IMG/VR virus record: IMGVR_UViG_3300017774_006457
Location: 1-31,598 of that record
Strand: one strand, 5' to 3'
DNA from: a virus
Taxonomy: Duplodnaviria > Caudoviricetes
DNA length: 31,598 bases
In this document: in pieces, positions 3,854 through 28,389 of the stretch
Layout of the letters: each line of letters begins with the position of its first letter
How positions within the stretch are numbered: the first letter of the stretch is position 1
The notes under the pieces: model-generated
Told to the model about the DNA's origin: nothing
What the model saw: the letters and a program-made list of their open reading frames with translations, nothing else
Databases searched by the model: none
Translations under genes and position numbers: made by a program

Positions 3854-4372
3854 ATGGATAAAGAAAAATATATAGCAAATTTCGAAAAAAACCCTATATA
3901 TTCATCTTTAAAAGACTTACAAGTAATGCAGTCTAAGACTATAGATAATAATGCAAATTTAGGCGTTTTTGCTAAAAGAAATTTTTCAGAAAATGAACTA
4001 ATAGAATGCAGTCCAATTTTTAAATTAGATTGGAGATCAAAATATCAACAAGATTCTTCAATAATGCAATATGCATTTACTACAAATACTAAATGTCAAT
4101 GTAACGAATGCAAAACTCATGGATATAATCTTTACATATGCTTGGGATATGCATCTATTTATAATAGCAAAAAAGACTCAGATGCTAGTTGGTTTCTATC
4201 TCCACAACATAGAGCTTGGTTTTTGGTTGCTACAAAAGATATAAAAAGAGGAAATGAAATTTTTACTTTTTATGGAAATAGATACAATATGGATTATTAT
4301 AATAAACCAAATAGACCACAATCATTAGATGAAGTAGATTGGTCTAAAATACCTTTAACTCCTACTAGTTAA
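3854..4372 (+). CDS. SET-domain protein (putative lysine methyltransferase)
   Basis: [10 protein letters not shown](S), [17 protein letters not shown] motifs. Confidence 0.85.
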
Positions 4373-5830: not shown

Positions 5831-6219
5831 GGGCCCGTACTGGTTTCGATTTTAGAGATCGGAATTAAAATGCAAGTGGAGGTTGAATCGAGGACTCCTT
5901 AAAAAGTTTCAATTTATATTAACTGCCAAAACAGCAAAATATAAAGGTCATATTTCAGCAAGAGTTTCTCTTGTCGAGATGACTGAATCTGTAGCCTAAG
6001 TTCTACAGCGTGACTACCTTGACACATCTATTGGATAGTTGCGTAATTAGATGTTTGAGCATAGGAAGTTTTTTTATTCTTTTTATATTCAATATTCAAA
6101 ATAAAATCGCTGAGTATGTTTGTTTTTTATCTATACAAGGCTAAAAACAAAAAGAACTAAACTTGTAGTATTTCAATTTAGATTTTTAAAAGACAGAGGT
6201 TCAATTCCTCTCGGGTCCA
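5831..6219 (+). ncRNA. ssrA: tmRNA
   Basis: 5' GGGCCCG pairs with 3' CGGGTCC-A including G3-U Ala determinant; 5' CTGGTTTCGA; T-arm AGAGG-TTCAATT-CCTCT; tag ORF 5925-5999; CCA not encoded. Confidence 0.93.
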
Positions 6220-6285
6220 AGTAAACGAATCCCTGTGTCTGCATTTTTATTAGATAATACTATAAAATCCACATATAATGCTTAT

Positions 6286-6837
6286 ATGAAGATAAGAAAA
6301 ACAAAAATAACTTGTGCTCAATGTGGCAATGAACACGAAATAAGGCAAAGCGATTATAATAGAAAAATAAAATCTGGACAAACTAAATTTTATTGTAGTT
6401 TGAAATGTTCTGGAAAAGCTGACTATAAAAATAACCCAATTAAACTAGAAAGAAATAAAGGCAATATTAATTTATTAAAAGGTTACGAAGCTAATAGATT
6501 AGATGAATATAGCCCATTTAAATATTCATTAAATAAAGCTAGATCAAGGAGCAAAGAAAAGGGACAAGAGACAGATTTAACTCTTGAATATTTAAAGCAA
6601 CTTTTAGAAAAACAAAACGGTTTATGTTCATATACAAGTATAGTTTTAGAATTACCTAGAAGCTCTCAAGATGAAGATATAAAGAAAAGTCCAACTAAAT
6701 TAAGTCTTGATAGAATTGACCCAAATATAGGATACATACAAGGAAATGTTGAATTCGTATGTTATTGCGTTAATGTTATGAAAAATGACTTTTCTAAACA
6801 AGAAATGGTAGATTTTATTAAAAAAATTAGAAATTAA
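6286..6837 (+). CDS. HNH/EndoVII-like endonuclease with N-terminal zinc finger (free-standing homing endonuclease-like)
   Basis: CAQCG...FYCSLKC finger; QNGLCSYT...SLDRIDPNIGYIQGNVEFVCYCVNVMK nuclease motif; ATG 6286 preferred to GTG 6235. Confidence 0.8.
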   Translation: MKIRKTKITCAQCGNEHEIRQSDYNRKIKSGQTKFYCSLKCSGKADYKNNPIKLERNKGNINLLKGYEANRLDEYSPFKYSLNKARSRSKEKGQETDLTLEYLKQLLEKQNGLCSYTSIVLELPRSSQDEDIKKSPTKLSLDRIDPNIGYIQGNVEFVCYCVNVMKNDFSKQEMVDFIKKIRN

Positions 6838-15681: not shown

Positions 15682-17379
15682 TTATTCTACTAAAGTGGGT
15701 AGCACTGTTGTTTCTTCAGTAACTATAATTGACTTATTATTAAAAGTCACATTTTTAAATTTATTTCTAAATTTTTGTTGGAATTTAATAAATTTTTTAA
15801 GATTTTTATTTAAAAATAAAACGTTTGGTAAATTATTCTTTAATATATTTGAAATTTTAGAGTACAAAAGAAATTTAGCGTTTTGTTGTGCTTTTTGTAT
15901 AGCTTTTTCTTTATTAACATCTTCACCTCTGCCTAATACTCCTAGTAAATTTCCTTGATATACTTGAACTTTTAAATCATTTATATTATTAAAAGTTTTG
16001 TTGAAGTTAAAAGCTGAAATAGTTTCATTTATTTTTGAATCTATAGGGTCGTAATTTCCATATCCAGAATAAACTACATATAGCATATGATCTGTACCAG
16101 CAATTTTATTAAATAAAGGATTTATTAATTCTATTGAAAAAGGCGTACCGCTAGGTATAATTCCATTCCATGTCCCTGTATTAAATTTTTTTGAAGCAGA
16201 ATATAATCCACTATACATTTGATAAAAAGCAGTCCCACTAATTGGCGTATTTTGTTTTAAATGTCCGTCAGCATCTATTCTATAGGGGTGATACCAATTT
16301 TTAGGATAAAAAGTTCCAGTATCATTAGTTGTATAACCCGAATAATTATATATGTCAAAAGCTGAAGCGTCTTTTCCAGATTCAAAAAAACGTATACCTG
16401 AAGGAAATGTTGCTTCAATATTTTCAGAGCTAGGGAAAATTGCTTTAACTGCTATCCCACTTGTAATTTTTTCATTTATAGTCTTTGGTGTTTGATAAAT
16501 AAAATTTTTCTGTCTTGTTACGGTATATTGCTTAGACCCATGTACTAAAGTATTACATAGTCCAGTTTCAGCTTTATGAGGAGAAATATAACATATTCTT
16601 TCATTTTGTCCAATTCCAGTTGAAATTAAAATTATACCTTTAAAATCTTGTTCGCCAGTATTAAGATTTTTTGTAAAACATGTTATTTTAGTCGGAACAT
16701 TATAAGCATTAAAATTATTTGTTATAACGGTTGTTGGATAAGTTAAATAAAAATTATTCAATAATGTAGTTGTCGATTCTCCAGGCAATCGATTTTCTTT
16801 CCAATTAACAAAATTTGTATTTGACATTGAATTTTTACCACTAAAAACGTTTGTTAAATTAATTGTTTTAGAAATAGAAATTTGACCAGTTTTATCAAAA
16901 CTAAATCCACTTAATATATTTTGATTTTTTATGCCACTTTCAAAAGAAAATCTAGCGTAAGGAAAAGATTCATTTGTACCTTTAAATTTTAAAATTTCTA
17001 AATTTTTGTTTGAAAAATCTATGAATTGATTAAAATAATTTTCATTGTTAATTAATTTATTATCTACTTTAGACAGATCACAAAAAGATAATTGCCCAAA
17101 AAGAGGAATTCTTTTTTGCACTTGAGCATTAAAGATAACGGAATCTGGTACTAATTTAAAATTTTTAGTTACAGTTAATTCAGTGCTTGTTGTTTCTGCT
17201 GAGATAAGATTAACAACTGCTTTTTTACTTTTAAGAGAGCCTTCAGATACTATATCTAATTTAAACTTTTTAACTTCATTGCTCGTAGATTCTACATTAT
17301 CTACAATAGAATTGCTTGCAGCTATATTTGCAGCTGGCAGACCTAGTAATTGTAAATCTTCTTCGTTTATTAAACTCAT
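15682..17379 (-). CDS. Ribozyme-associated hypothetical protein, paralogue A1
   Basis: 565 aa; shares GQLSF, ICYISPH, YSGLY...FNTGTWNGIIPSG with 21574-23091. Confidence 0.85.
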   Translation of the reverse strand: MSLINEEDLQLLGLPAANIAASNSIVDNVESTSNEVKKFKLDIVSEGSLKSKKAVVNLISAETTSTELTVTKNFKLVPDSVIFNAQVQKRIPLFGQLSFCDLSKVDNKLINNENYFNQFIDFSNKNLEILKFKGTNESFPYARFSFESGIKNQNILSGFSFDKTGQISISKTINLTNVFSGKNSMSNTNFVNWKENRLPGESTTTLLNNFYLTYPTTVITNNFNAYNVPTKITCFTKNLNTGEQDFKGIILISTGIGQNERICYISPHKAETGLCNTLVHGSKQYTVTRQKNFIYQTPKTINEKITSGIAVKAIFPSSENIEATFPSGIRFFESGKDASAFDIYNYSGYTTNDTGTFYPKNWYHPYRIDADGHLKQNTPISGTAFYQMYSGLYSASKKFNTGTWNGIIPSGTPFSIELINPLFNKIAGTDHMLYVVYSGYGNYDPIDSKINETISAFNFNKTFNNINDLKVQVYQGNLLGVLGRGEDVNKEKAIQKAQQNAKFLLYSKISNILKNNLPNVLFLNKNLKKFIKFQQKFRNKFKNVTFNNKSIIVTEETTVLPTLVE

Positions 17380-17383
17380 GATT

Positions 17384-17448
17384 AACCAAATATTCTAGCA
17401 TCGTAAACCTCTTGTACTGTGGTTTTTTATCTAGCCCAGAATTTTCAT
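17384..17448 (-). ncRNA. Predicted 65-nt circularised exon of ribozyme copy 1
   Basis: Lies between omega-G (17449) and UGGUU site complementary to IGS GACCG; ends pair (AUUCUGG/CUAGAAU). Confidence 0.55.
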
Positions 17449-17700
17449 CATTTTGTTATCGTTAAATTGTTTATATTTAACATCTTTATATTTCTATAAA
17501 GTTCAGACTATATCTTCTTTTATTTCTAAAAGTTTGGGCGCTCTTGGACAATTTTATTGTTGGTACTCAATCGTCTAGTCGTTACACCTTACAGCCTATC
17601 TTTCCCAGCTGTCTTGGCTCGGTATTGTCTTCCATTTTTTAATGGTTAAGATTTCCACCGAATTCACCCAATAACGGTCATTTAAATTTTAAAAAGAACT
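17449..17700 (-). ncRNA. Group I intron ribozyme core (IA-like) lacking an upstream exon, copy 1
   Basis: P3 UUGGGUG/CGCCCAA, P4 UUCGGU/ACCGAG, AAGGUGUAACGACUA, GAAGAUAUAGUC (P7 GACUA/UAGUC), GNRA-capped P8 and P9, ends AACAAAAUG. Confidence 0.9.
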
Positions 17701-17708
17701 AATCTTTA

Positions 17709-17734
17709 TTACACTTAATTTTTTTTATGTGTAA
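17709..17734. promoter_or_regulatory. Back-to-back GTGTAA promoter motifs
   Basis: TTACAC 17709-17714 (minus, ribozyme) and GTGTAA 17729-17734 (plus, 8 nt before ATG). Confidence 0.65.
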
Positions 17735-17742
17735 CATAATTT

Positions 17743-18300
17743 ATGCCTAACTTATTACCTTTTAGAGACTACAGCGAGCATGAAGTCATTAATTTATATT
17801 CTTGTAATACAGTTGCAACAAAGGGAAGTTTGGTAAAGCTAATTACGCCTGTTGGTAAAAATGTTTTAAATCTTTCAGATATAAGTGTAGGAAATAAATT
17901 CCCTAATACAATAAATAATAATTTTGATATAATTGGCCAAGTAGAAATTGTAACAGCTTATAATGATGTGCCTAGTGCTCTAGGATTACTGCTTTATGAT
18001 GTTCGTGAAACTGATGAAAATGGAGAGCGTCTAATTTTTAATCCAAGAAAAATGGCAGAAATAAATGCTGTTTTACCAATAATTCATGCTGTACCAATTC
18101 TAACAAGAGGTATAGTCTCAATTAATGATATTGATGAAACTGCTCGATTAGGTGGAGCTGGTGGAGCTCCACAACTTGGTGCAGCTGCTTATGTAGGAAA
18201 TAATGGAAGAATTGCTGTAAATGGTATAATTAAAATAGGTAAATTTTTAAGCACAAAAGATTCTAATGGATATTGTTTAATGAAAGTGAATTTTGATTAA
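17743..18300 (+). CDS. Hypothetical protein, paralogue B1 (possible capsid decoration/cement protein)
   Basis: 185 aa, highly similar to 23473-24027; beta-rich; structural role is inferred only. Confidence 0.7.
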   Translation: MPNLLPFRDYSEHEVINLYSCNTVATKGSLVKLITPVGKNVLNLSDISVGNKFPNTINNNFDIIGQVEIVTAYNDVPSALGLLLYDVRETDENGERLIFNPRKMAEINAVLPIIHAVPILTRGIVSINDIDETARLGGAGGAPQLGAAAYVGNNGRIAVNGIIKIGKFLSTKDSNGYCLMKVNFD

Positions 18301-21573: not shown

Positions 21574-23091
21574 TTAACTCCTTGTTAAGAATTTTTTCAA
21601 TTTTCTAAATTTACGATTTTCATATATAATTTCTGGAATATGTGTTTTTATAATACTACTAATTTTATTTAATATATTATATCTAAAATTTATTTTACTT
21701 TTAATAAGAGCTGAATCAATATCTTCGCTATATGCTCTTCCTGTAGATTTAATAGAACAATCGTAATCTACTAAAACTTTTGTATCTAAAACTTGGGCTT
21801 TTTTATTAATTTCACTAGGAATTATATTCGCGCCGTATGTATATAAACAATTAAATATTTTTTTATCTAATGCGTCTTCTGAAGAATATCCTGTATATAA
21901 AACAGATAAAGTATTATTCACTCCATACTCTTTGCCTCTTCCTAAATCGAATCCAATTATTTCAATAGAAAAATTTACTCCAGAAGGTATAATCCCATTC
22001 CAAGTTCCTGTATTAAAAGTTTTATTTGCGTTATAAAGGCCACTATACAATTTATAAAAATATGTATCTTTTATAGGAGTAGTTTGTTTTAATTCAGAAT
22101 TAGATAAAACTTTATGTAAAGAAGCATCGTCCAATCCATTTTTAGATTCATCAAATTGTATGCCTGTCCATTTTATTTTTTGAGATAAGTATTCTGATCC
22201 TAATTTTAAAGTAGGTAATATAATACCGCTGGGAATTCTCCTATATTGAACAATATTAGAATTAACAAATTTTTGAGTTCCAGTATCAAGATATTTTCCA
22301 GTGAATGGTTGAGCTTTATATACAACTGTATTAGTAAAGCCAGTGGTATAATCATGAGGAGAAATATAACATATTTTTGAATTTACTCCGTTGCCAGTGC
22401 TAATAACTAGTAATCCATCTATTTCTTCTATTCCACTAAAAGTATCGTATGAAGGATTAATTTTTGTAGGAATATTTAATTTATTAAATTGATTTGCAAA
22501 TAATGTATTTGGATATGGTAAATAGTAATTGCCTGTTTTTAAAAAGTTTTTATTAACAGAGGCAATTTTTTCTCCTGTTAAAATATTTTCATGAATAAAA
22601 GTTTTTTGAGAATAGACTCCTTTAAAAGAATTTGAATAACCATTTAAAGTATTTGAATTTGATATACCAGAATTATATGTAAAACGGCTAAAAGAAAGGT
22701 CTTTATCTACACCAGGAATAGAATATAAATCTTTATTTAAATGAAAAGGTTTAAAATAATCATTATTTTCTGGAGAATATGAATATTTATCAGATTTAAA
22801 AAAACTTATCTGACCAAGGAATGGAACTTGAGAATTGTATTCTGAATAATAAAAAGGGTTTTCAGATCCTAATTTAAAAGATTGGTAATTAAAATTATTT
22901 GTTCTTTGCCCTCTTTCTAAAGTTTTTGTTGTAATAAGTGGCTTTGGATTTCTTAATGTGCCAATATTAAAAATATCTAATTTTGAATTTTTTAAATAAG
23001 GGTGAGTAATAGGATTCTGATCAGTAAATTGTATTTCTGAGTCAGATATAATTTGACCAGCTAATCCTAATTTTCGAAAAGATTCTTTCAT
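21574..23091 (-). CDS. Ribozyme-associated hypothetical protein, paralogue A2
   Basis: 505 aa; paralogue of 15682-17379. Confidence 0.85.
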   Translation of the reverse strand: MKESFRKLGLAGQIISDSEIQFTDQNPITHPYLKNSKLDIFNIGTLRNPKPLITTKTLERGQRTNNFNYQSFKLGSENPFYYSEYNSQVPFLGQISFFKSDKYSYSPENNDYFKPFHLNKDLYSIPGVDKDLSFSRFTYNSGISNSNTLNGYSNSFKGVYSQKTFIHENILTGEKIASVNKNFLKTGNYYLPYPNTLFANQFNKLNIPTKINPSYDTFSGIEEIDGLLVISTGNGVNSKICYISPHDYTTGFTNTVVYKAQPFTGKYLDTGTQKFVNSNIVQYRRIPSGIILPTLKLGSEYLSQKIKWTGIQFDESKNGLDDASLHKVLSNSELKQTTPIKDTYFYKLYSGLYNANKTFNTGTWNGIIPSGVNFSIEIIGFDLGRGKEYGVNNTLSVLYTGYSSEDALDKKIFNCLYTYGANIIPSEINKKAQVLDTKVLVDYDCSIKSTGRAYSEDIDSALIKSKINFRYNILNKISSIIKTHIPEIIYENRKFRKLKKFLTRS

Positions 23092-23096
23092 AGTTA

Positions 23097-23158
23097 ATCC
23101 AGTTAGCTCCTCAACAACCTCTGACCTTTTAAGAGATTTTACGTGATTAGCTTACTAA
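23097..23158 (-). ncRNA. Predicted 62-nt circularised exon of ribozyme copy 2
   Basis: Lies between omega-G (23159) and UGGAU site complementary to IGS GUCCA; internal AAUCUCU/AGAGGUU stem; ends pair. Confidence 0.55.
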
Positions 23159-23393
23159 CATTTTGTTAACGCTAAAAAGTTTACTTTTAGCATCTTTACA
23201 TCGCTGTAAAGTTCAGACTATATCTTCCTGCTTTCGCAAGTTTGGGCGCTCATGGGCAATATTATTGTTGGGACTCAATCGCCTAGTCGTTACACCTTAC
23301 AACCTATCTTTCCCAGTTGTCTTGGCTCGGTATTGTCTACTTGAGATTTCCACCGAATTCACCCAAAATGGACTATTTAAATTTAAATGAACT
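23159..23393 (-). ncRNA. Group I intron ribozyme core (IA-like) lacking an upstream exon, copy 2
   Basis: Same core as copy 1 with compensatory changes in P6a, P7.1, P8, P9, P9.1; ends AACAAAAUG. Confidence 0.9.
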
Positions 23394-23401
23394 AAACATC
23401 T

Positions 23402-23461
23402 TTACACATTTTTTAAAAAAAAAGCTTTTTTATTTTTACTTTTTTTTATTTTTTTGTGTAA
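23402..23461. promoter_or_regulatory. Back-to-back GTGTAA promoter motifs separated by A/T tracts
   Basis: TTACAC 23402-23407 and GTGTAA 23456-23461. Confidence 0.65.
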
Positions 23462-23472
23462 TATATTTTGCT

Positions 23473-24027
23473 ATGCCAAATTTAATGCCATTTAGAAATT
23501 ATAGCGAATATGATATTATTAATTTATTTGCATGTTCAGTAGAAGCGACAAAAGGGACATTAGTAAAACCAATACAAAAATTAGAAAAAAATCCTTTAAA
23601 CTTATCTCAAAATGCTCCTGGAGCAATATATTCAAACGCAGTAAATAATTTATTTGAATTGACTGGACAAGTAGAACCTATAGCAAATTATAATGATGTA
23701 CCAACTGCTTTAGGAATTTTATTGTACGACGTAAGAGAAAAAGATGAAAATGGTGAAAAATTAATTTTAAATCCAAGAAAAGCGGCAGAAATGAATGTAG
23801 TACTACCTAAAATACATGCTGCGCCAGTATTAACTAAAGGAATAGTGCTTATAAATGATATAGATGTATCTAATCATGGATCTGGCGGTGGAAATCCATC
23901 TATAGGCGATGCCGCCTATGTAGGTGATGCGGGAAAAATTGCTACAGACGGATTAGTTAAGATTGGAAAATTTTTAAGCCCTATTGATAGTAATGGTTAC
24001 GCTTTAGTAAAAGTAGATTTTGATTAA
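23473..24027 (+). CDS. Hypothetical protein, paralogue B2 (184 aa; start corrected)
   Basis: MPNLMPFRNYSEY aligns with MPNLLPFRDYSEH of B1. Confidence 0.8.
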   Translation: MPNLMPFRNYSEYDIINLFACSVEATKGTLVKPIQKLEKNPLNLSQNAPGAIYSNAVNNLFELTGQVEPIANYNDVPTALGILLYDVREKDENGEKLILNPRKAAEMNVVLPKIHAAPVLTKGIVLINDIDVSNHGSGGGNPSIGDAAYVGDAGKIATDGLVKIGKFLSPIDSNGYALVKVDFD

Positions 24028-28059: not shown

Positions 28060-28389
28060 TTATGTAGATAAAGAGTGTACTAATCTAACTTCTGGAATTA
28101 ACTTCCCAATGAGTTCTTCAAAGCGGAGCTTTCCCTGTATTTTCATACAAAGTTGAAAAAGCCTATTAGTTCTACTTCCCAATTGAGTCTGTAAGCCTTT
28201 CGGCCCCTAACACTTATCGGATGTCGGTAGGATCATCCATCGCGTGTTAGCCCTTACACCTACACTCCCACTATTACTAGTGGTTATCTGGGTCGCAAGC
28301 TCCTATAGCGTTGCCCACGTTTCGAACTAATAAGACTTATCGTTTTTTTTGGAGTACGACAAACCTTATCCGCTAATTGGGCGGTATGT
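28060..28389 (-). ncRNA. Unidentified large structured RNA
   Basis: GC-enriched ORF-free island with its own promoter, three GNRA hairpins, nested long-range helices; 3' end approximate. Confidence 0.7.

Follow-up and report, generated by a model that had tools for sequence, protein, structure and literature searches.

A phage-encoded group I ribozyme that is intact and interrupts no gene probably works by back-splicing, joining the two ends of an exon that lies downstream of it. The window, the whole 31,598-nt (31.6-kb) contig that we analyzed, comes from a large AT-rich phage-like genome and encodes a tmRNA, a ribonucleotide reductase, a sigma factor, glycosyltransferases and purine enzymes. 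On its minus strand, from 17714 to 17384, a promoter-like box is followed in turn by a 21-nt leader, the guide GACC, the catalytic core with its omega-G, a 65-nt segment and the target GGUU, and then by a 4-nt spacer (AAUC) and the AUG of a 565-aa gene at 17379 (Table 1). In the mechanism that we propose, transcription would start at 17700, GTP would cut at the downstream 5' splice site (17384|17383), and the freed U at 17384 would then attack at omega-G 17449. The predicted products are a 65-nt RNA circle, the released ribozyme, which would close on its own leader, and a G-added mRNA of the 565-aa gene whose leader is 5 nt long; this last product had been left out of the initial annotation. 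The two transesterifications and three products follow from known group I chemistry and from an engineered self-targeting design. Cutting at the downstream site is very likely, and formation of the circle is likely, while the chances that the circle has a job of its own are about even. One late-type promoter would thereby yield both a stable folded small circle and the short-leader mRNA that is usual in these phages.

Table 1. Positions of the two ribozyme units and adjoining genes in the 31,598-nt window.
Feature	Coordinates	Strand	Basis or remark
GTGTAA promoter-like box of the ribozyme transcript	17709..17714	-	Spacing to starts; putative promoter
Predicted 21-nt 5' leader, start A17700, with motif GUUCUU (17699-17694)	17680..17700	-	Start deduced from spacing
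U17680, P1-extension/P10 base	17680	-	Within predicted leader
Internal guide sequence GACC(G), directly 5' of P3	17675..17679	-	Sequence and covariation with downstream target
Group I catalytic core, omega-G 17449	17449..17671	-	Rfam and located helices
P3	17671-17665 with 17540-17534	-	Located helix
P7 (G-binding pair)	17580-17576 with 17510-17506	-	Located helix
Further core helices P4-P6a, P7.1, P8, P9, P9.1 and P9.0	within 17449..17671	-	
65-nt exon, predicted circle	17384..17448	-	Rod, closing stem from exon base 2
P1 target UGGUU	17384..17388	-	Predicted 5' splice site 17384/17383; U-G wobble with G17679
4-nt spacer and 565-aa gene	15682..17383	-	ORF; predicted G-added short-leader mRNA
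Divergent 185-aa gene	17743..18300	+	Shares bidirectional promoter region with ribozyme
Copy 2, same layout	23097..23407	-	Sequence comparison with copy 1
Copy 2 guide GUCC (GUCCA)	23373-23370 (23373-23369)	-	
Copy 2 omega-G	23159	-	
Copy 2 62-nt exon	23158-23097	-	
Copy 2 target GGAU (UGGAU)	ending 23097	-	

The core has what is expected of a group I ribozyme. Rfam RF00028 matches 17484-17720 (minus strand) at 52.6 bits against a gathering threshold of 50, and the omega-G lies where the initial annotation had placed it, in a core that has the helices from P3 to P9.1. Across 11 aligned members of the family described below, P3, P7, P9 and P9.1 are paired in 100% of cells, P6a in 98.5% and P7.1 in 90.9%. 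The P7 G-binding pair, omega-G, the P1 wobble and P10 are all found, with the P1 partner located downstream. An interrupted gene is not: upstream genes are varied and include no tRNA. In copy 1, no P1 or P2 hairpin precedes the core, the upstream ORFs amount to just the divergent gene and no tRNA is predicted, as had been claimed, and P3 starts 37 nt after the GTGTAA box, in keeping with the earlier estimate. Copies of this box precede the start codons at 17743, 15653 and 8080, and likewise A17700 and A23393, at a spacing of exactly 8 nt, from which we infer the 21-nt leader. A generic sigma-70 promoter scan did not pick up the box and neither supports nor tests it. Rfam returned no riboswitch or aptamer match in the window or the family loci, the predicted leader being just 21 nt long, and no group II match in the window and 20 loci.

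GACCG (17679-17675) can pair with UGGUU (17388-17384), 65 nt after omega-G, just as first described. GGUU is absent from the minus strand between 18300 and 17681 and occurs twice within 17448-17000, at 17406 and 17384; only at 17384 does the +1 base pair with the guide's 5' neighbor. That neighbor is U in copy 1, where the first exon base and the base after the cut site are both A. The second copy, whose core is 84-93% identical to that of copy 1 and is not reported by Rfam, carries GUCCA and UGGAU at the equivalent positions, and here the guide's 5' neighbor is A while the first exon base and the base after the cut are both U. Both the compensatory change and the covariation between the 5' neighbor of the guide G and exon base 1 (U/A versus A/U) are thus borne out. 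In copy 2, 5 nt separate the target from AUG 23091 of a 505-aa paralogue (23091-21574). The entire cassette, consisting of the divergent cement-like gene, the ribozyme and the large uncharacterized gene, is duplicated, at 15682-18300 and 21574-24027, approximately 5.7 kb apart.

P1 is just 4-5 bp, and a 5-bp match in two copies could be chance; tests in homologues show that it is not. Four pattern scans gave at least 250 distinct group I cores. Among the matches listed, a usable P3/P4 anchor and sufficient upstream DNA were present in 159, and 66 of these passed a rule blind to the downstream DNA (AT-rich upstream, a G 13-14 nt before P4, no A-run). Three were dropped, two with a P2 hairpin and one that was too short, and L198 was added by hand; the 53 members with at least 250 nt downstream were kept and grouped in 42 exon clusters. 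The metagenome scan returned mostly chance matches, and since guide positions 1 and 4 were set by its pattern, the rows that it supplied are biased at position 4. The final set holds 59 distinct family cores (among the matches listed), outside of which stand L143, L191, L137, L061, L362 and several short loci, because the rule did not call their omega-G or their target was truncated. Family members precede at least four unrelated gene families, and their upstream neighbors are many and different. The same scans contained about 180 conventional group I relatives (among the matches listed). The leader motif GUUCUU occurs in 38 of 69 family-like rows as opposed to 1 of 181 other group I cores, again among the matches listed.

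The initial annotation had proposed looking for guide-target covariation in homologues, and the family provides it. A strict site was defined as U-G plus three Watson-Crick pairs plus the P1-extension pair, 40-250 nt after P7, and in the null each member was given another class's guide (2000 draws). Strict targets were found downstream in 38 of the 42 exon clusters (among the matches listed), against a swapped-guide mean of 11.4 and maximum of 20. A conventional upstream 5' exon had been named as one finding that would speak against back-splicing; upstream, strict targets were no commoner than chance (5/40, null 8.9), and inside the next ORF they numbered 5/39 (null 6.0). We also took a blind site, the last GGNU before the first long ORF, which was testable in 34/42 clusters: its N pairs with guide position 2 in 27/34, and the next base pairs with the guide's 5' neighbor in 30/34. 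All four Watson-Crick forms occur at guide position 2 of the 59 cores (G-C 41, A-U 7, U-A 7, C-G 4), where sites were chosen for pairing and positions 1-4 are therefore descriptive. On the core tree the position 2 pair has undergone at least 13 changes, with the A-U and U-A rows dispersed over it (7 and 6 changes), and compensatory changes also appear at position 3 (G-C, U-A) and position 4 (U-A, A-U). P1 is 87% paired on an unfitted alignment of 11 subfamily members, two rows of which are one column off. Targets also match in the members reached through the protein (L547, L552, L553) or the leader motif (L533), two being of new classes, and by eye in L137, L061 and L191. There are exceptions: L143 and L362 have three pairs only, with no 4-bp target, the wobble position is C in L536, and 2/59 cores break the P1 extension.

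These results bear on whether the unit could be a dead intron relic with matches arising by chance. The near-threshold Rfam score of copy 1, the failure of Rfam to report copy 2 and the likely decay of one member, L536, would all suit a relic. With core helices that are intact and covarying, targets so far above the null and a family spread over many gene contexts, we give that explanation almost no credence.

P10, formed by the guide's 5' neighbor and the first exon base and active only in the second step of splicing, pairs in 54/59 members (among the matches listed) and is broken in 5/59; it was called regardless of target, with omega-G assigned by rule, or by hand for five late rows. Since U pairs with A or G and the chance level is high, the weight is carried by the 11 rows in which the neighbor is not U, and P10 is Watson-Crick in 9 of these. 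The exons, 15-192 nt long, also pair at their ends. In the window's subfamily, exon bases 2-5 have partners immediately 5' of the target in 19, 18, 18 and 17 of 20 members, falling to 4/20 at the next position, and the closing pairs are of many types. Exon ends of a second subfamily, with exons of about 76 nt, pair in 23, 23 and 22 of 23 members, then in 1/23. Such pairing brings both splice sites together, and ligation would close a 4-nt loop. Against selection on the exon, a fold z below -1.5 is reached by only 26/54 exons, and copy 1 folds no better than shuffles (z 0.33 linear, 0.0 circular); copy 2 is a rod with z -2.9.

Second-subfamily exons are 75-79 nt long and contain a pseudoknot of bases 16-18 with about 38-40, which takes six sequence forms and is Watson-Crick in 15/16 distinct rows, compared with 0.9 for swapped triplets. 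It is for this subfamily that we have the strongest grounds to propose that the circle would be the selected product. The 75-79 nt pseudoknot exon, found in L016, L041, L167, L178, L188, L198, L216, L269, L282, L283, L302, L401, L405, L426, L441, L448 and L469, lies upstream of a conserved gene of approximately 126 aa and is a structured RNA motif that is new in its own right. In 5/54 members of the family, a U-tract or a separate -10 box intervenes between the target and the next gene; the ribozyme-exon unit can therefore stand alone and does not solely serve the gene.

Elsewhere the predicted cut is close to a gene. It falls 2-9 nt before the AUG in 21/26 members of subfamilies A and C with a called ORF, and the ribozyme precedes the gene for a relative of the 565-aa protein at 16/16 loci (three identical, four in one contig). 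The 565-aa protein itself has no Pfam, PHROG or Atlas match, and the first protein-led scan gave no relatives. Shine-Dalgarno sites are rare in these phages (3/133 ORFs), and in many of their genes a -10 box lies 5-12 nt 5' of the start. Given the rarity of Shine-Dalgarno sites and a cut so near the AUG, step 1 would convert a rod-adjacent start into an mRNA that has a short leader and begins with a triphosphate G. This suggests that the ribozyme could be one that only cleaves, step 1 freeing the mRNA as a GTP-dependent or time-delay switch and the circle being waste or not being made at all. The exons of subfamily A are in line with such a role, as they are hypervariable with no common sequence, which makes any function of their circle hypothetical. 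We consider cleavage alone unlikely as the full account, because P10, which plays no part in step 1, covaries, because omega-G and P9.0 have been retained and the ends of the exons are paired, and because the 76-nt subfamily preserves both length and pseudoknot, some members being separated from the gene by a U-tract or new promoter. Moreover, a plain promoter beside the AUG would give the same mRNA.

Back-splicing also has to be weighed against splicing in the usual direction. AGUU at the start of the leader (17700-17697), missed in the initial annotation, is a weak upstream alternative that makes three contiguous pairs with the copy 1 guide, as is also possible in 19/27 members with the leader motif. 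If AGUU were a tiny upstream 5' exon, splicing would be conventional or switchable: the ribozyme would splice itself out of the 5' UTR, and the downstream site would be an alternative target, along the lines of the C. difficile c-di-GMP ribozyme. We regard this as distinctly improbable. The motif never follows guide changes, its pairing is broken in 8/27 members, the fourth pair forms in 1/27 and the pairs are mostly wobbles. Most of the 76-nt subfamily lacks GUUCUU, and in five members (L432, L193, L259, L154, L466) it sits in the P5 loop and not in the leader; nor do upstream targets exceed chance, and no aptamer was found by Rfam. No constant pairing partner of GUUCUU was found, and we take it as a docking strand or cyclization site. 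In L140 and L150, which are related stand-alone cores, 16-27 nt of a GUUCUU-bearing leader are paired with a segment further downstream, much as in engineered constructs with homology arms.

Runs containing parts of the window are mostly lake and freshwater metatranscriptomes, and the four examined, out of 23 listed, are all of that type. In one lake run, X2, two contigs, one of 157 nt (depth 1511) and one of 135 nt (depth 1195), have 30-nt overlaps with each other at either end, one overlap (26-nt end) being deduced from record lengths and contig depth being a poor measure. Together they describe a closed 232-nt loop, from a relative roughly 90% identical, in which the ribozyme 3' end (omega-G) runs into its own leader and guide GGCC. 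The loop fits a released ribozyme whose omega-G has attacked the 5' end, a closure that is established group I chemistry according to excerpts of PMC6274462, and it suggests that the ribozyme is active in nature; it would also arise by 3' hydrolysis, from an upstream splice site or by template switching. The junction reads best as a join just after the leader GUU, which resembles the full-length intron circle of the same excerpts and so lends something to an upstream AGUU exon. Also in X2, a nearer strain is represented by an unspliced contig at depth 140, with the divergent gene at 24-29, and a search for DNA of the X2 strain gave 39 matches, all of them chance coding matches. The exon back-splice junction (17384 to 17448) was absent from the contigs of the four RNA runs, in which a near-identical exon is covered at depth 140. 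Library preparation usually loses RNAs of 65 nt. As DNA, the junction occurs neither in the window nor in the family loci examined. The strain of the window itself is present in run X1 at depth 3-9, where it may be DNA.

The ribozyme contigs are the deepest pieces of X2, poor measure though depth is, which raises the idea that the released ribozyme is the important product, a guide-directed trans cutter or splicer of host or phage RNAs. The released core would be an intact guide-plus-omega-G enzyme, and guides often differ among same-genome paralogues, as in the two window copies, in L546/L547/L552/L553, and in L173 and L533. A guide of 4-5 nt gives little specificity, however, each guide change is matched in cis, and head-to-tail closure would consume omega-G, all of which makes a trans role very hard to credit. 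Different guides in paralogues could keep the copies from cross-reacting.

Several candidate identities for the exon were rejected. The copy 1 circle begins with AUG but reaches a stop after five codons, and the AUG start is not conserved, which disfavors translation. As an antisense guide, its longest matches elsewhere in the window are only 12 and 11 nt. ARAGORN and Rfam gave no match to a permuted tRNA, an SRP-like RNA or a known Rfam RNA, and the predicted junction closes a 4-nt loop, not the 7-nt loop of an anticodon. Among exon variants, L369 is a tandem pair of ribozymes with exons of 15 and 25 nt, and L137, L061 and L191 have very short exons and no P9.1.

Among phage group I introns, the T4 td-like introns belong to subgroup IA2. 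The back-splicing unit shares with phage introns (RF00028) the P3-P9.1 core, the G-binding pair, omega-G, the U-G wobble and P10, and differs from them in lacking an interrupted gene, an upstream P1 hairpin, P2 and a homing endonuclease, and in having its own promoter-like box. L128, L142, L179 and L227, whose guides are GGCC and whose P1-P3 spacing is short, are conventional introns of ribonucleotide reductase-like genes and possible relatives of the family's ancestor. The closest design that we found is engineered. In self-targeting-and-splicing (STS) with the Tetrahymena intron (Lee 2023, Cui 2023, as summarized in excerpts of PMC11394858), RNA is circularized with P1 alone; the order of 5' guide, intact ribozyme, omega-G, payload and 3' target ending in U is the order found here, and in the same excerpts G attack followed by ligation gives a circle at sites set by P1 and P10. 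Unlike STS, the phage unit is natural, with a 220-230 nt core and a 4-5 bp P1; its exon has its own rod and no antisense arms, and a protein gene follows. Unlike permuted intron-exon (PIE) constructs, its ribozyme is unsplit, the whole core lying 5' of the exon in normal domain order with only the exons swapped. The earlier claim of natural back-splicing is supported by comparative evidence (38/42 and 54/59, above), with two corrections: the engineered counterpart is STS and not PIE, and the circle is still a prediction.

Natural systems offer partial parallels. Circularly permuted (CP) group II ribozymes, as described in the portions of PMC8637638 that we cite, are likewise natural with reversed splice-site order and make small circles (15-86 nt, versus 15-192 nt predicted here). 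They differ in using group II chemistry with permuted domains (D5-D6-D1-D4) and a branch adenosine and branched product, and they reside in chromosomes and plasmids of bacteria. Conservation of their circles is poor, whereas a pseudoknot is kept in one phage subfamily. The same portions describe the lariat-capping ribozyme, a group I derivative that also remakes an mRNA 5' end but branches in one step. In the intron circles covered by excerpts of PMC6274462, omega-G closes onto the 5' end, like the X2 contigs, but those circles are introns, not exons. Unlike CP group II ribozymes, the phage unit is predicted to make a downstream mRNA end too.

In the C. difficile riboswitch-ribozyme, the alternative site lies just before the start codon. 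This c-di-GMP-II system (excerpts of PMC3984707 and PMC9481103) resembles the phage unit in being domesticated, in residing in a 5' UTR and in altering a leader through alternative G-attack sites. As far as excerpts of PMC3984707, PMC9481103 and PMC3649979 go, it has an aptamer and a normal upstream 5' exon and is confined to C. difficile, while the phage unit has no aptamer; the excerpts of PMC3984707 and PMC9481103 mention no circular exon. A 2023 paper (PMC10085705, in excerpt) gives natural circular permutations only for hammerhead, twister, 5S rRNA and group II, and the system of PMC12336344 is, in the text available, engineered. Our literature search, with subscription papers and supplements outside its scope, found engineered systems, CP group II ribozymes and intron circles only and no natural group I back-splicer, in agreement with the initial annotation, to which no described phage system of this kind was known. 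The motif of the family could figure in the supplement tables of a noncoding RNA survey.

The phage ribozyme unit is real and conserved, and apparently undescribed. Having found none of either in print, we would count it as the first natural group I counterpart of CP group II ribozymes and the first dedicated circular-RNA-making phage gene class; it is a case of a selfish intron turned into a stand-alone RNA-processing gene. In a broader reading, to which we assign even chances, it is a widespread class of phage ribozymes yielding structured small circles with an infection job and GTP-capped short-leader mRNAs, with several orthogonal copies per genome; the circle may act as a decoy, regulator or virion RNA. 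The family offers dozens of compact natural scaffolds for scarless RNA circularization, exposes new structured small RNAs including the 76-nt pseudoknotted one, and allows a test of whether a leaderless-type mRNA can owe its 5' end to a ribozyme.

In cultured phages, ribozyme matches were only partial and to conventional introns, with no match for the flanking proteins, and a search of bacterial genomes gave 0 matches. Many genes of the window seem to have little or no leader, which gives a hint as to the host. The divergent 185-aa gene likely encodes a capsid cement or decoration protein, although this is a lead only: it has an Atlas feature score of 0.97 to clusters in which 13% of members carry Phage_cement. 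Its relatives neighbor the ribozyme in 10 of the clustered loci, and the neighbor is not constant. A GC-richer intergenic stretch 5' of the ribonucleotide reductase gene (28130-28385, minus strand) has a strong fold (z -3.6, 0/200 shuffles) and no Rfam match, making it a candidate for an unknown structured RNA. The window also encodes, all on the plus strand, a phage SET-domain protein (3854-4372) and a phage tmRNA with an unusually long tag (5831-6220), which is followed by an HNH/endonuclease VII-like gene (6235-6837).
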